From the NCBI GenBank assembly GCA_049512935.1, contig JBEKWR010000005.1, positions 65,394 through 129,393 on the forward strand: a DNA stretch of 64,000 nt, read 5' to 3'. Of this stretch, positions 1,702 through 7,807 are shown one piece after another (within the stretch, counting starts at the first letter, position 1; each line of letters begins with the position of its first letter). Under the pieces are notes generated by a model that had not been told where the DNA came from, did no database searches, and was given only the letters and a program-made list of their open reading frames with translations. The position numbers and the translations under genes were made by a program. The DNA comes from Candidatus Bathyarchaeia archaeon (lineage in GTDB: Archaea > Thermoproteota > Bathyarchaeia > Bathyarchaeales > Bathycorpusculaceae).

Positions 1702-3780
1702 TTAATGTTTTTCTTCTTTTAGCCCGAGCTGTTGAAGCATCAGCTCAGTGCTGTTGGTTGGTGGAAGGCATGTTTGGTTTCGGCACACGTAAGCAGTGGC
1801 GTTGCCTTCGATTTGCTGGTAACCCAAGCCAGCCTTGTCGGGAAGCTTAAGCGCGGTTATCGTGGTTGGCAGGTAATGTTGCCTAAGCGCCTTGAGCATT
1901 TCTTGAGTGTCCTTTGCGTTTAGTTCGCCGACTACCGTGACGCTGTAGAATGGGCCAAGCTGAAAGTCAACTGCTGAAAGAAAGAATGTGAAGGCGTCGG
2001 GTGCTCCTTCGACTTCTTCCGCGAAGGTTTTAGTCATCTGGGTTGCCATCTGCTCATACGTGGGCTGGTCCGTTAATCGGCTGAGCCACAGCAGGTCATG
2101 CAGCGCCACCGAGTTTCCCGATGGAGTTGCGCCGTCATAGAGCTGTTTGATTTTCGGCATTCCATGCTGATTGCCTTGTGTCTGGTAGAATCCGCCGTTT
2201 TGCTGGTCCCAAAACTTGCTCACCATGTTTTTTGTCAGGTCGGCGGCGGCTTGAAGGTACACGTCGTTGAACGTTGCCTCGTACAGCTGTATGAGCCCAT
2301 ACACAGTGCAGGCATAGTCGTCTAGAAACCCCTCTACAGCCACCTCGCCTTTCGCGTAACGATGATACAACACATCACCTTTCCGCATATTGTTTAACAT
2401 AAAGTCTGCTGTCTTGGACGCTGCCTCAAGATACTCTGCGCTGCCGAAAACGACGCCAGCTCTGGCTAAAGCCGCAATCATTAAGCCGTTCCAGTCGGCT
2501 AAGACCTTGTCATCTATCGCTGGAGCGACACGCTTTTGTCTGGCTTTAAAAAGGGCGTTTCGGATTTTTCCCATCTGCATGATTAATTCATCGACGCTTA
2601 AGCCCTTGTACGCGGCAAGGTCTTCAAGGGGTTCTGCTATGTGCAGAATGTTTTTGCCGTTTGTATGCCTTGTTTCGCTAATGTAGTTGCCTTCGGGTTT
2701 CAAGCCGTAGAGGTGAACTGCCAACTCTGCATCCGCAGGAGATAAAACATCGAGTACTTCGTCGACGGTCCAGATGTAAAACTTGCCTTCTTCCCCCTCC
2801 GAGTCAGCGTCTTGAGCCGAATAAAACCCGCCTCCGTCTCCTGCAGACAGGTCGCGAAGGACGTACTCCAAAGTCTCTTTTGCCGAAATCTTGAACTTGG
2901 GGGAACCCGTCGCCTGATACGCCTCAACATACGCCAGCGTCAGCAACGCCTGGTCGTAAAGCATCTTTTCAAAATGAGGAACCAGCCATTCCGGGTCAGT
3001 GCTGTACCTGTGAAAACCAAAACCGAGTTGGTCAAAAATTCCGCCCAAACGCATCTGGCGCAGAGTATTTTCAGCCATAGAAAGCGCGGTTTTTTCCCCA
3101 GTGTGTGCATAGCGGCGCAGAAGATACAGGAGCTTGTGCGGCGTGGGAAACTTCGGCGCAAACCCGAACCCGCCGTTTTCCTTGTCGTAATCCAGCTTAA
3201 GGCGGTCAAATCCGTCCTGCAAGACCTCAGCGTTGAGTTGGTTTTGGGGCGCTCGTTTCTCGACGGCTTCTATGCGCGCTTTGATATCTGCACCGACCAT
3301 TTCCATTTGGGAACGCTGCATTTTCCATATTTGCGTGACCTGCGGCACAAGGTCAAACATGCCGATTATGCCTGGTCGACTGTGTTTAGGTATATAGCTT
3401 TGGGCAAAGAACGGGTTTAGCTTGGGTGTCATTATTATGTTGAGGGGCCAGCCGCAATTTCTGCCCATGGCTTGACACACAGCCATGTATTGAGCGTCAA
3501 GGTCGGGTCTTTCTTCACGGTCAACTTTAATGCACACGAACGCTTGGTTCAGCAGGTCGGCGACTTGCTGGTCGCTGAAGCACTCCATTTCCATCACGTG
3601 GCACCAGTGGCAAGTCGAGTAGCCTATGCTGAGAAAGACTGGTTTGTCTTCAGCCTGCGCATTGTCTAAAGCTTCTTGGCTCCAAGGATACCAGTCCACA
3701 GGGTTGTAGGCGTGCTGGAGAAGGTACGGGCTTTTTTCCTTGATAAGCCTGTTAGGTTTGGGTTCTGGTTTTTGCTGCAT
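1702..3780 (-). CDS. YyaL/SSP411-family protein (DUF255 thioredoxin domain plus alpha/alpha barrel)
   Basis: [39 protein letters not shown]. Confidence 0.95.
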
Positions 3781-3945
3781 AAAACTTGCGCTTCCTGCTT
3801 TCAGTATAAGTTTAGTGCCTTTTATTAACCGTTAAGGTTTTTGGTTTAGACTGTTTTCTGTTTTTGCCTTTTTTTGATTCAAGAGCAAGAAATTGAATTA
3901 TTCGCTAGGTTGCCTAAGTGGCGTGAAAAGCGAAGGGAACTATTT

Positions 3946-4215
3946 TTAATAATAGTAGAGTGGGTGACGTTTGCGGGTTGATGAGAGAAGACCAAGCAAC
4001 AAAAAAACTGCGCCGATTAAAGCAACAAAGCAGCCTACCAACAATTCAACGCTAGAACCTGACAGCGCCGATGATGAATCAAAAGAGCTCTGCTGCGTCA
4101 CGCCTGCCGATGCCCAGCAAAGAACGAGTCCTATAATTAGAACAATGAACCCGAAAAATGCAAGGTACACATTTAATGACCAATTATTCAAACGGCTCAT
4201 TGTCCCACGGCTCAT
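3946..4215 (-). CDS. Small membrane protein with two TM helices
   Basis: Two hydrophobic segments and a basic tail. GGAG lies upstream of the ATG. Confidence 0.6.
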   Translation of the reverse strand: MSRGTMSRLNNWSLNVYLAFFGFIVLIIGLVLCWASAGVTQQSSFDSSSALSGSSVELLVGCFVALIGAVFLLLGLLSSTRKRHPLYYY

Positions 4216-4357
4216 GTTCTCCTATTTTTGAAAGTTAAGCTTTATGAATTATAAAGCCAGAAGTCGCGAAGCCTCAGAATCCCCTCTTGGGGGGTTGGGT
4301 GAGTTCGTAGGTTCTGAAAAAATCTGAATTGTTAAGACGGGATTTGCGGGGAGTTAC

Positions 4358-4366
4358 TTTAATATA
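4358..4366 (+). promoter_or_regulatory. TATA box of the queT promoter
   Basis: TTTAATATA lies about 28 nt upstream of the hairpin at 4394. Confidence 0.6.
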
Positions 4367-4393
4367 TCTCTGATGAGATAATTTTGTTCCTTC

Positions 4394-4431
4394 GGTAGTT
4401 TCCGTATATAACCTACCTTAAAAAACCCGGG
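4394..4431 (+). ncRNA. Putative preQ1-class-I-like riboswitch aptamer in the queT 5' leader
   Basis: 5-bp stem GGTAG/CTACC, a U-starting loop ending in AAC, and a tail TTAAAAAAC. It sits directly upstream of a QueT transporter. Confidence 0.7.
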
Positions 4432-4440
4432 TTGAATGAA

Positions 4441-4932
4441 ATGAAATTGAATGCTAAGAGTTTAGCTGTTATGGCTATCTTTGCCGCTTTGTATGCGGTT
4501 GGAGTTATTGTATTGGCGCCGATAAGCTTCAGTATCGTCCAAGTAAGAGTTGCAGATGCATTATTGCCGTTGGCTATGATTTTTGGGTTGCCAAGCGCTT
4601 TGGGTCTTAGTTTAGGATGTATAGTTTCAAATGTCTATGGAGGGCTTGGAGTAATTGACATTGTTGGGGGAGCAGCCGCAAATCTTGTTGCTTGCACTTT
4701 GGCATGGTACATTGGAAGAAAAGGAAACGGACTTCAACGATTTACAGGAACTGTTGCAGAAACAGTAGCTGTCACTTTGATTGTTGGAGGATACCTATCG
4801 ATTATATTTCAAGTGCCACTGGAGTTCAGTCTATTGGGATTATCCATAGGGGAAATAATTGCCATAAACCTCATCGGGTTTCCTCTGCAGGAAGTCATAA
4901 GAAAAAGCAAAATTTTCAGCAAATTCACCTAA
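4441..4932 (+). CDS. queT: QueT-family queuosine/7-deazaguanine precursor transporter
   Basis: AIFAALY..LAPISFSIVQVRVADAL..GLSLGCIVSN..G.IDIVGG. Multi-TM protein; ATG 4441 preferred over TTG 4432. Confidence 0.9.
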   Translation: MKLNAKSLAVMAIFAALYAVGVIVLAPISFSIVQVRVADALLPLAMIFGLPSALGLSLGCIVSNVYGGLGVIDIVGGAAANLVACTLAWYIGRKGNGLQRFTGTVAETVAVTLIVGGYLSIIFQVPLEFSLLGLSIGEIIAINLIGFPLQEVIRKSKIFSKFT

Positions 4933-4966
4933 AAATGGTGCCCAAAGGATAGAAAACGCGGTTTCT

Positions 4967-5542
4967 TTATTTTTGTAGCTGGCAGTTTTTTATGCATTCT
5001 ACCAGTGACCTGAGGTTTTGCACACTTTTGTCTAGAGTGACGAAGTTTTCGATTTCGCCTATTGCGCTGCCTGGAATAATTACGATTACCTTGCTCAGGA
5101 AGGGTCTGCTGAACCCGAGTTCCATAGCAGCTTTATCATTCAAGGCAACCTGCAAGCCATTGACTCTCCAGTTGTCCAAATCCACATCTACCCCATCGAC
5201 TTCTCCCAAAACCTCGCCATTTGGGCTGAATACTTTTTTGCCTTCGACTTTGACATTATCTACCTGCATCTCTTTTTCCGCGATATCTTTGAGGTTTCTT
5301 ATCGGTTCCTTGAGTTCTATCACGTCGCCGACTGCCTTGATTAATTCAGTTGGTAGGCACACCATTATTTTTCGTAGAAATTGCTTTTTCATGTCGAGTT
5401 CTGCTGCCGCTTCATCGCTGAGGATGACGTAGAAGGCGGTGGCTTGCCACGCGTCGAAGTCAAAATGCAGATCATTGATTTCTCCCAGGATATAGCCTTC
5501 GGTTCCGACAACTTTTTTTGCTTTTAACAGTACAGGATTCAT
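4967..5542 (-). CDS. Tandem PRC-barrel domain protein
   Basis: Two copies of KKV..EG.ILGE...D.D.W.....V.L.D.AA.EL. Confidence 0.85.
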   Translation of the reverse strand: MNPVLLKAKKVVGTEGYILGEINDLHFDFDAWQATAFYVILSDEAAAELDMKKQFLRKIMVCLPTELIKAVGDVIELKEPIRNLKDIAEKEMQVDNVKVEGKKVFSPNGEVLGEVDGVDVDLDNWRVNGLQVALNDKAAMELGFSRPFLSKVIVIIPGSAIGEIENFVTLDKSVQNLRSLVECIKNCQLQK

Positions 5543-5648
5543 CGGGTTTCACTCTCTTGGTTATTTCAGCTGTTTCAAGAATAAATAATTTGCTTAAGTG
5601 CCAGCCCGTCAAGCTGGGGCGAGGCGGGAACCTTAGAGACTTGGCAGC

Positions 5649-6065: not shown

Positions 6066-6827
6066 TTATGACGCCATTTTGTTAAGCGACCTCAAACCCC
6101 ACAAGAACACGAGAACAGCAAGCACGCCTATTATTACGAATCCTTCTACTATTGCAACGTTCGAAAAGTTCCCAGCGAACAATGCACGGGTCGCGTTGAC
6201 CGCGTAGGAGAACGGGTTAACCTTCGAGGCGTCTTGAAGCCAAATCGGCGCGAGCGCCAAGGGAAGAATGATGCCTGACAGCAGGGAAACGGGAAGGGTT
6301 ATGGTGTTCAGCGTCGGCGCAAGAGGGTCTTCAATCTTGTAGATAAGCGCGAAACCGTATGAAATAGACGCCATGGTGATTCCGATCAGAGCGTACAGCA
6401 GCAGAGAGAGCAAGAACCCGTAAATATTTATGCTAAGCCCAAACGGAATAGCAACCAGTGTAATTAGGACGCATTGAAGAAGCAGGATTATTGCATCCCT
6501 TAGAACCCTGCCTAAAAGAATGGCGGGTCGTTTCACTGGGGTGACTAAGAATCGTTCTATAACTCCAGTTCTTATATCGTCAATAAGTGAGAATCCGACG
6601 AAGGCTGTGCCGAAGAGCGCTTGCAGAACAAGAAGTCCAGGAATGAAAACATCTACTGCTTTTCCAGGGGGAATACCAGGAACGCTGCCAAGCCCGTTAA
6701 GGAGCGGCATAAACAAGATCAAGTACATGAGCGGCTGGAACATGCTTACGAAAACAAAAACTGGGCTCCTCAGCGTGTGTTGCATGTTGCGGATAAACAT
6801 CAATTTAGTGTCGCGTAGAAATGTCAT
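6066..6827 (-). CDS. ABC-2 type exporter permease (DrrB-like)
   Basis: QPLMYLILF, G.IERFLVTP, NPFSYAVNATRALF. ATGA overlap with the ATPase gene. Confidence 0.92.
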   Translation of the reverse strand: MTFLRDTKLMFIRNMQHTLRSPVFVFVSMFQPLMYLILFMPLLNGLGSVPGIPPGKAVDVFIPGLLVLQALFGTAFVGFSLIDDIRTGVIERFLVTPVKRPAILLGRVLRDAIILLLQCVLITLVAIPFGLSINIYGFLLSLLLYALIGITMASISYGFALIYKIEDPLAPTLNTITLPVSLLSGIILPLALAPIWLQDASKVNPFSYAVNATRALFAGNFSNVAIVEGFVIIGVLAVLVFLWGLRSLNKMAS

Positions 6828-7807
6828 TTTATGTTATCCTCCCTGAGCGAGCGGCCCGTGTACTTAAGGAAAACATCATCTAAACTTGGCCTAGACAACG
6901 TTACAGCTTGCGCCTCCAAGTTGCTCGCGTCGAGCGAGCGTAAAAGGTCAGGCATAATTCTCTCTCCGTCTTTAACAGTAAGATGCACAGCGTTGTTCAT
7001 AGTTTGAATTTTCTCCACCTTAACCTTCTCGGTTAACAAAGTTTCAGCCTTGCAAGCAACTTCCTCCGACACAAAACTAAACACTATCGTGTCGCCGCCA
7101 ACCGAGCTTTTCAATTCTTCCGGTGTTCCCTCCACAACAATTTTTCCGTTATCTATGATGGCTATTATGTCGCACAGCTTATCGGCTTCATCCATGTATT
7201 GAGTTGTTAAAAAGATGGTGACGCCGTCAGCCTTCAGTTTTTTAATTTCTCCCCACAAGTATGCTCTGCTCTGCGGGTCAAGCCCTGTTGTCGGCTCGTC
7301 GAGAAGAAGCAGTTTCGGATGGTGAATCATTCCAAGCGCAATGTCTAAACGACGTTTTTGTCCGCCCGAGTAGGTCTGGGCTGGCCGCGCAATGAATGAG
7401 CCCATCTGCAAGCGCTCCACAAATTCGGAGGCGTATTTCTTCGCGGTTAAAGTGTCTAAACCGTACAGTTGAGCTTGAAGGACCAGGTTCTCAACGCCTG
7501 TAGAACTCAAGTCGGCTCCACCTGCTTGGCTCACGCACCCAACGTTCTGCCTGATCTGCTCCTGCTGACCCGCCAAATCGTACCCGAGAACCTTCGCTTC
7601 CCCACCAGTTGGGCACAACAACGTGGAAAGCATCTTCTGCGTGGTGGATTTGCCAGCGCCGTTTGGACCTAGAAAACCGAAGATTTCCCCTTTCCTAACG
7701 GCGAGATCTATACCTCTAACTGCTTCTACCTCTTTTTTGCCGCCCCGCCCGTTAGTAACGAAGGTCTTCCGAAGCCCTTTCGTTTCTATCACTAAATTTT
7801 CTGTCAT
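6824..7807 (-). CDS. ABC exporter ATP-binding subunit (DrrA-like)
   Basis: Walker A GPNGAGKST, signature YSGGQ, LLLDEPTTGLD, and C-terminal PSLDDVFLKYTG. Confidence 0.95.
   Translation of the reverse strand: MTENLVIETKGLRKTFVTNGRGGKKEVEAVRGIDLAVRKGEIFGFLGPNGAGKSTTQKMLSTLLCPTGGEAKVLGYDLAGQQEQIRQNVGCVSQAGGADLSSTGVENLVLQAQLYGLDTLTAKKYASEFVERLQMGSFIARPAQTYSGGQKRRLDIALGMIHHPKLLLLDEPTTGLDPQSRAYLWGEIKKLKADGVTIFLTTQYMDEADKLCDIIAIIDNGKIVVEGTPEELKSSVGGDTIVFSFVSEEVACKAETLLTEKVKVEKIQTMNNAVHLTVKDGERIMPDLLRSLDASNLEAQAVTLSRPSLDDVFLKYTGRSLREDNIK

Follow-up and report, generated by a model that had tools for sequence, protein, structure and literature searches.

A 38-nt element (positions 4394-4431) in front of the queT gene of a Candidatus Bathyarchaeia archaeon (assembly GCA_049512935.1) is a real, strongly selected and queT-specific leader. 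It is most likely a preQ0-responsive riboswitch that turns translation off and is built like the class I preQ1 aptamer of bacteria. The element lies in the stretch of 64,000 nt analyzed here, referred to below as the window (contig JBEKWR010000005.1, 65,394-129,393 of the forward strand). What was observed directly is the sequence of the element, the extreme degree to which it is conserved, the fact that it is linked to queT alone, and the pathway context of the genome that carries it. Leaders of this kind are called type A below, and a larger archaeal queT leader is called type B.

The initial annotation of this DNA had described positions 4358-4443 as a candidate preQ1/preQ0 riboswitch controlling queT in an archaeon. 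When the sequence was re-read, every base that it listed was found in its place. The gene and the host were also as described: the protein matched PF06177 (100 bits, E = 1.9e-28, cut-off 33.7) over profile positions 1-141 of 141, and an archaeal large subunit rRNA on the locus of a congener identified the host as an archaeon. The features of the gene and its leader are as follows.

4358-4366, + strand: TATA-like box TTTAATATA, a putative promoter
4394-4398, + strand: P1 5' strand, GGUAG (GGTAG); G4398 and C4413 would be the pocket floor
4399-4412, + strand: 14-nt loop TTTCCGTATATAAC, beginning with T and ending with AAC
4399-4401, + strand: L1, UUU; U4399 is at a position like U6 of class I and is invariant in 43 of 43 distinct aligned sequences
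4402-4404, + strand: P2 5' strand, CCG, complementary to 4428-4430; invariant
4405-4412, + strand: L2, UAUAUAAC; variable centre, length 7-9 nt, terminal AAC invariant
4412: C, within L2 and preceded by A; candidate specificity base
4413-4417, + strand: P1 3' strand, CUACC (CTACC), able to pair with 4394-4398
4418-4425, + strand: TT and A6, UUAAAAAA; A6 run invariant
4418-4427, + strand: A-rich L3, UUAAAAAACC; C, CC, AC, GC or UC is found between A6 and CGG
4426-4431, + strand: CCCGGG
4428-4430, + strand: P2 3' strand, CGG, overlapping the G-run of a Shine-Dalgarno (SD)-like sequence; CAG only in the copy of genome G130, whose queT is truncated
4429-4435, + strand: weak SD-like GGGUUGA (GGUGA or GGGAG in relatives), a putative ribosome-binding sequence
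4441-4932, + strand: queT coding sequence, 163 amino acids from the ATG at 4441; PF06177

Conservation of the element was followed through the relatives of its protein, QueT, which 50 of 61 related genomes were found to encode. The element was shared by all seven loci with 69-100% identical QueT, and 14 further loci from named Bathyarchaeia metagenome-assembled genomes (MAGs) carried it as well, so that it was present in 21 of 21 close loci ascertained by their protein. Across 16 distinct orthologous leaders of this set the element was 0.94-1.0 identical. Taken part by part, its mean pairwise identity was 0.89-1.0, and that of the 20 nt upstream only 0.36; in the queT codons it was 0.92 at second positions and 0.53 at third positions.

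A covariance model (R1) built from type A elements matched the genome of the window once, at 72.5 bits, and the next match scored 14.8 bits. It matched 21 of 120 genomes of the genus, one copy apiece; one of these 21 matches, of 22.4 bits in genome G140, had neither P1 nor any queT signature and was taken as chance. In a class-wide sample of 151 genomes it matched two, the second of which belonged to a different genus of the same family. A metagenome scan, in which the pattern put no constraint on either P1 strand, gave 65 matches. Sixty-one of these had a P1-like complement, with 5 of 5 Watson-Crick pairs in 58 and 4 of 5 in the other 3. The gene directly behind the element was queT in 60 of these 61 copies, and the last copy was at the end of a contig. 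The remaining four matches had 0-1 of 5 P1 pairs and no queT. Part of the invariance in the metagenome set, and in L1 in particular, was imposed by the search pattern; the L1 sequence was also seen in all of the protein-ascertained loci and in genome G266.

One copy provided a natural control. In G130 (locus L083, G130:C5, element at 1501-1545 on the minus strand), queT was truncated after about 28 codons, and the leader had G-to-A changes in the P1 closing pair and in the CGG of P2, plus one change in L3. In other words, the element decays where queT is dead. The truncated gene of this remnant ran directly into sequence that is found downstream of queT in the window, and its TATA-like box was degenerate.

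The position of the element relative to its signals was also examined across the relatives. The leader in the window ends with TTGAATGAA, followed by the ATG at 4441. The open reading frame (ORF) listing starts queT at an in-frame TTG at 4432, and the ATG equivalent to that at 4441 is kept in relatives without an upstream out-of-frame ATG. The distance from the end of the element to the ATG was 6-11 nt. The TATA box that the initial annotation saw upstream was found to recur: of 54 distinct type A loci, 51 had a TATA-like (TAATATA-like) box that ended 22-37 nt before P1, most often at 27-28 nt, and no such box was detected by regular expression in the other three. The distance from this box to the element varied more than that from the element to the ATG. 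With a box just upstream and an ATG just downstream, the element should sit at the very start of the mRNA, and the queT transcript probably begins with it or close to it. Of the 43 distinct type A sequences, 39 had a pyrimidine just before P1 (4393 in the window); this base could be an initiator signal for transcription from G4394, or could equally belong to an alternative 3-bp hairpin (YGG/CCG). In a metatranscriptome run with a 0.05 share of the sampled words, contigs spanned only 4642-4874 and 4942-5000; the contig over 4642-4874 was about 90% alike and was thus attributed to the queT of a relative.

The SD-like sequence that is overlapped by CGG was GGUGA in many relatives, GGGAG in G266 and GGGUUGA in the window. 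It was complementary to the 3' end of the 16S rRNA (...GGAUCACCUCCU) as read in four congeners, which agrees with the SD-like element proposed in the initial annotation; a search with the exact pattern for this 3' end gave no match in the assembly of the window itself.

These features were compared with those of bacterial preQ1 riboswitches. As set out in the relevant sections of a 2024 review (PMC11625349), class I is an H-type pseudoknot in which a G-C closing pair of P1 forms the floor of the pocket and a U comes first in L1. The specificity base is a C before the P1 3' strand, preceded by U in type I or by A in types II and III; L3 is A-rich, and SD bases are buried in P2. Class I and class II riboswitches both occur before queT in bacteria, according to the sections concerned (PMC11625349; PMC5372724), and in class II the SD is hidden in a pseudoknot (PMC11625349).

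All of the class I pocket determinants were present in the type A element. U4399 follows G4398, which can pair with C4413, and A4411-C4412 precede CUACC. The pair G4398-C4413 was GC in 42 of 43 distinct sequences, the exception being the G130 remnant, and AAC was invariant in 43 of 43 and in G266. The tail at 4418-4425, with its invariant A6, provides the A-rich L3. In functional copies G4398-C4413, U4399, A4411-C4412, A6 and the CGG at the SD were all invariant. Complementarity that would allow an H-type pseudoknot was there in both P1 (5 bp) and P2 (3 bp), but only one of the five P1 pairs was compensated, itself mismatched in some variants, and P2 was invariant. The location directly before queT was the same in the window, in the 21 protein-ascertained loci and in the 60 metagenome copies. 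The parts that do vary, namely the centre of L2 (7-9 nt) and the base or bases between A6 and CGG, fit the pseudoknot model. The loop between the P1 strands was 13-15 nt long across variants, and one variant had an insertion of 8 nt at the start of L3.

Compared with the preQ1-I family (RF00522), and especially with its translational types II and III, type A shares a predicted 5-bp P1, the G-C closing pair, U(U) after the P1 5' strand, AC before the P1 3' strand, an A-rich L3, a predicted 3-bp P2 between loop and 3' tail that would bury the first SD bases, and the position before queT. It differs in having an L2 of 7-9 nt, an L3 of 9-10 nt or more, a P2 of CCG/CGG and an inner P1 that is invariant instead of covarying, and also in its archaeal host, in the expected ligand, which would be preQ0 instead of preQ1, and in its likely origin from an archaeal leader. 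PreQ1-II and preQ1-III would have the family of ligands in common with type A, but they are HLout pseudoknots of about twice the size, and their models (RF01054 and RF02680) gave no match at E ≤ 10 to the window element, to the type A variant L138 or to a type B leader.

In the proposed mechanism, the element would fold into a small H-type pseudoknot in which P1 is formed by GGUAG and CUACC, P2 by CCG at 4402-4404 with CGG at 4428-4430, and the A-rich L3 runs along P1. A 7-deazaguanine would sit between P1 and P2. This would most likely be preQ0, the only such base expected in this archaeon. The ligand would pair with C4412, with U4399, the G4398-C4413 floor and an adenine of L3 around it, as in bacterial class I. 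On binding, P2 would capture CGG, the first bases of the SD-like GG(G)U(U)GA that is located 6-11 nt before the ATG, and translation of the QueT importer would drop when 7-deazaguanine is plentiful. Fold, ligand, transcription start and direction of regulation are all predicted from sequence and by analogy; the fold is inferred from complementarity, the pattern of conservation and the bacterial parallel, and not from covariation.

The gene content of the host is consistent with a preQ0-dependent leader. The genome of the window, which is 93% complete, encodes TgtA (arcTGT; TIGR00432, 560 bits against a cut-off of 350; G000:C18:32558-33529) and one gene of the PTPS family. Neither a full-length QueC nor QueF was found in this 93% complete genome, and the only QueC-like matches were partial PP-loop matches to positions 1-68 of 210. 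QueC was also not found in five of the six type A relatives sampled (G003, G019, G026, G031 and G035, with completeness of 82-98%); the sixth, G030, has it, as do 26 of 36 sampled congeners. An organism that puts preQ0 into tRNA and does not make it needs an importer, and it is plausible that such an importer would be under feedback control. One sub-lineage within the genus seems to be auxotrophic for preQ0, and the use of preQ0 for archaeosine noted in the initial annotation fits the need for import that these genes imply.

In front of most of the other QueT genes, in the genus and beyond, lay another conserved sequence, a leader some 65 nt long (type B). In this leader P1 (consensus GGCGG) is followed by GUGA, a variable stretch, CUCC(U/C)A-CCCG, UU and P1' (CCGCC), and then by an A-rich linker, C(C)CGG(G) and the SD (GGGAGG). 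The 3' half of the loop could pair with the tail and the SD in 23 of 23 sequences tested, at -13 to -21 kcal/mol. In 60 distinct sequences, 9 of the 13 pairs of P1 and the pseudoknot helix were compensated, in 49 cells and with G.U pairs included. Paired cells made up 95.5% of the total, as against at most 57.6% in shifted controls, and 0 or 1 of 500 shuffles matched. This pattern indicates that type B is an H-type pseudoknot with a second helix that contains the whole SD. No Rfam 15 family matched it at the gathering score or at E ≤ 10. Examples are L025:1426-1496, L151:1161-1230 and L150 at about 900-977, the last followed by queT at 978-1511 and queC at 1513-2169.

Across the class, 93 of the 151 sampled genomes carried type B (72 of the 95 of high quality). 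In a sample of 151 genomes from the phylum it turned up in 28, of which 15 did not belong to the class, and it was also present in MAG loci of Promethearchaeota and Hodarchaeota (Asgard). It was always before QueT where this was examined: in all eight first ORFs in genomes with multiple copies and in all seven loci from other classes. In 24 of the 26 genomes of the genus that have QueC, queT-queC was directly behind type B, as judged from coordinates and a Pfam check, and QueC followed in six of the seven loci from other classes. G030 holds both leaders: one of its queT genes has type A in front of it, and its queT-queC pair has type B. In G052 (C1:395350-396965) and G060 (C4:36146-37783), a type B leader was followed by a queT-like gene, queC and a second queT, so that two QueT paralogues share one leader. 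Type B has the look of a 7-deazaguanine riboswitch candidate not described before.

The two leaders have a common order of parts: a P1 of 5 bp, a loop, P1', an A-rich linker, C(C)CGG and the SD. Both lie just downstream of a TATA-like box and before queT, and in both a CCG in the loop can pair with the CGG of the tail, adjoining P1. Type B differs in its length, in its loop, which has GUGA and a 7-10-nt anti-SD strand that pairs with the whole SD, in having UU, not ...AAC, before the P1 3' strand, and in the closing pair of P1, which was G-C in 46 and C-G in 14 of the 60 sequences. Its distribution is also far wider than that of type A. A model (R2) built from 23 type B leaders gave no match at E ≤ 0.01 in the genome of the window with filters on. 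With filters off, on 121 nt around the window element, it gave 10.9 bits (rough E 5e-4), with P1 aligned to P1, AAAACCCGG aligned tail to tail and the loop unaligned. In an alternative register, GUU(U)CCG of types A and B could be equivalent, with YGG/CCG forming a 3-bp hairpin in the window; this hairpin does appear in minimum-free-energy folds.

A tree of 47 QueT proteins was in agreement with a connection between the leaders. The 13 proteins behind type A fell into a single clade (support 98/98), which also held one protein led by type B (L057) and one without a recognised leader (L016). This clade was nested in a group (99/98) whose other members were archaeal and mostly led by type B, and in which two internal operon copies had no leader; the root of the tree is a midpoint root, used for drawing only. 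The tail of one type A variant with a long tail (L052) was much like type B tails. On the simplest reading, type A arose within archaea from a type B-like leader, of which it appears to be a miniaturised, lineage-restricted derivative; its likeness to bacterial class I would then be convergent or reflect a much deeper relationship. It is possible, and we propose it tentatively, that the two types make up a single family of preQ0-sensing riboswitches, H-type pseudoknots specific to this domain, and that no 7-deazapurine riboswitch was known in Archaea before them. In this view type B is ancestral and controls queT-queC, and type A is miniaturised, with its pocket converged on that of class I. 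The leader of L016 (G054:C3, upstream of queT at about 1489), whose QueT is 58% identical, is neither type A nor type B; it begins with a GGCGG...CCGCC hairpin, behind which comes a longer G-rich leader, and may be a third leader form.

Several results weigh against the riboswitch reading of type A. No family of Rfam 15 matched anywhere in the window at gathering scores. RF00522, which the initial annotation had suggested searching at a relaxed threshold, gave no match to the window copy on either 4300-4480 (181 nt) or 4390-4436 (47 nt) even at E ≤ 10, and a search of the whole genome with it gave nine sub-threshold sites (best 20.3 bits) that did not include the element. In the variant L138, which has an L2 shorter by one base, RF00522 was the only one of 4227 families to match at E ≤ 10, with an alignment that spanned the full model and in which both P1 and the A-tract fell on their counterparts. 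Its score was a non-significant 10.8 bits (E = 3.1), compared with a gathering score of 39. The likeness to RF00522 is therefore one of resemblance, not membership. Characterised class I aptamers also have a shorter L2 and L3 than type A, in which these are 8 nt and 9-10 nt (17 in L052).

Covariation of P1 across archaeal queT leaders, another check that had been suggested, was weak. The outermost pair was GC in 38, AU in 2, UA in 1 and unpaired in 2 of the 43 distinct sequences, and it was the only pair with compensatory change, in three cells; 87 of 500 shuffles reached one such pair. In three other variants it was A.A, G.A or U.U (the last in G266). The inner four pairs were invariant in 41 of 43 sequences and were never replaced by another pair, and the variant L097 had C.A at the middle pair. 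P2 (CCG/CGG) never varied, so it offered no covariation. In the minimum-free-energy fold of the 38-mer, P1 formed at only -4.3 kcal/mol (z = +0.86), an energy that does not stand out from that of shuffles, and once the native 5' flank was included a different, competing structure took the place of this fold. Finally, type B has UU before its P1 3' strand and a closing pair that flips, so types A and B may read their ligand differently; if both sense it alike, the reading of C4412 is not obviously transferable to type B. The interpretation put forward in the initial annotation thus stood in part. The queT gene, the archaeal host, the conserved leader and the pocket bases of a preQ1-I layout held up, and the expected support from the RF00522 model and from covariation did not materialise.

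Some of the same results would suit a conserved cis-regulatory RNA that senses no small molecule, whether a site for a protein or a small RNA or a constitutive structure for translation or mRNA stability. GUAG/CUAC is invariant beyond what pairing needs, which leaves room for protein binding or another sequence-specific reading; compensatory change is almost lacking, stability is weak, and the PreQ1 model fails. We consider this explanation unlikely, since all four class I pocket positions hold the expected bases, PreQ1 is the only Rfam family that aligns at all, and the sister type B precedes queT-queC, an arrangement typical of metabolite riboswitch regulons. There is also no linked candidate regulator gene; neighbours differ among loci, and only queT is common to them. 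Protein-contacted DNA would also be expected to have half-sites that are invariant without covariation, and GGTAG-N14-CTACC is a perfect 5-bp inverted repeat 22-37 bp past a TATA-like box, near the presumed start of transcription, where a dimeric archaeal factor could block RNA polymerase. Such a DNA operator is improbable, because conservation is asymmetric over the whole 38 nt and includes the non-palindromic TTTCCGTA, AAC and TTAAAAAACC(C)GG, and because a half-site spacing of 13-15 bp would shift the helical phase. The distance to the TATA-like box is more variable than that to the ATG, and the related type B covaries at the level of RNA, including G.U pairs. The steady spacing to the ATG, together with the loop length of 13-15 nt, suits an RNA hairpin better than an operator.

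The match of layout and pocket bases to class I, the PreQ1 family as the sole Rfam alignment, and the occurrence of class I and class II riboswitches before queT in bacteria, as noted above (PMC11625349; PMC5372724), would also be expected if type A were a true RF00522 homolog gained with queT by horizontal transfer. This is highly improbable. Scores were far under the gathering score, the type A QueT clade (98/98) is nested, under a midpoint root, in the archaeal and mostly type B-led group (99/98), and the long tail of L052 resembles type B tails; in its listing of phyla, the 2024 review (PMC11625349) gives class I for bacterial phyla only. A chance resemblance without function is hardly credible. 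A small motif in an AT-rich region, with a folding energy no better than that of shuffles, might suggest it, but conservation is far above that of flanks and synonymous sites, there are 61 environmental copies, and decay was seen only where queT is dead. A riboswitch for preQ0 thus remains the reading that we prefer for type A.

Other searches around the element gave no further candidates. At E ≤ 10 on 4300-4480, two C/D snoRNA models matched at UGAUGA (4371-4376) and were rejected as chance, since this is absent as a conserved motif in the relatives; weak matches to a viral pseudoknot and to SAM_alpha were likewise rejected as chance. A tRNA scan of 3500-5600 found none, and a scan for sigma-70 promoters and terminators, which does not apply to archaea, gave no match close to the element. 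The genes around queT in the window look ordinary, with no apparent tie to the metabolism of 7-deazaguanines: a DUF255/thioredoxin-domain protein (1702-3780, - strand), a PRC-barrel protein (4967-5542, - strand), and two ORFs (6066-7807, - strand) that resemble an ATP-binding cassette (ABC) transporter pair, as judged from their translations alone.

Hardly any riboswitches are known in archaea, which is what gives the element its importance. For archaea, McCown et al. (2017, PMC5473149) list only TPP and fluoride riboswitches, together with occasional cases of FMN, Mg2+-I and guanidine-II, and the 2024 review of preQ1 riboswitches (PMC11625349) names bacterial phyla alone. A search of the open-access full-text literature brought up no account of a preQ1 or preQ0 riboswitch in an archaeon; subscription papers and supplements were outside this search. 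If the proposal is correct, a 7-deazaguanine-responsive archaeal leader would add a new class of metabolite to RNA-based regulation in archaea, in a form that is tied to archaeosine instead of queuosine. At 38 nt, the aptamer would be small enough for direct biophysics. The compact type A and the elaborate type B, before members of one gene family, would be a natural pair in which to study the evolution of riboswitch architecture, and part of this Bathyarchaeia genus would be predicted to be auxotrophic for preQ0 and to rely on QueT.

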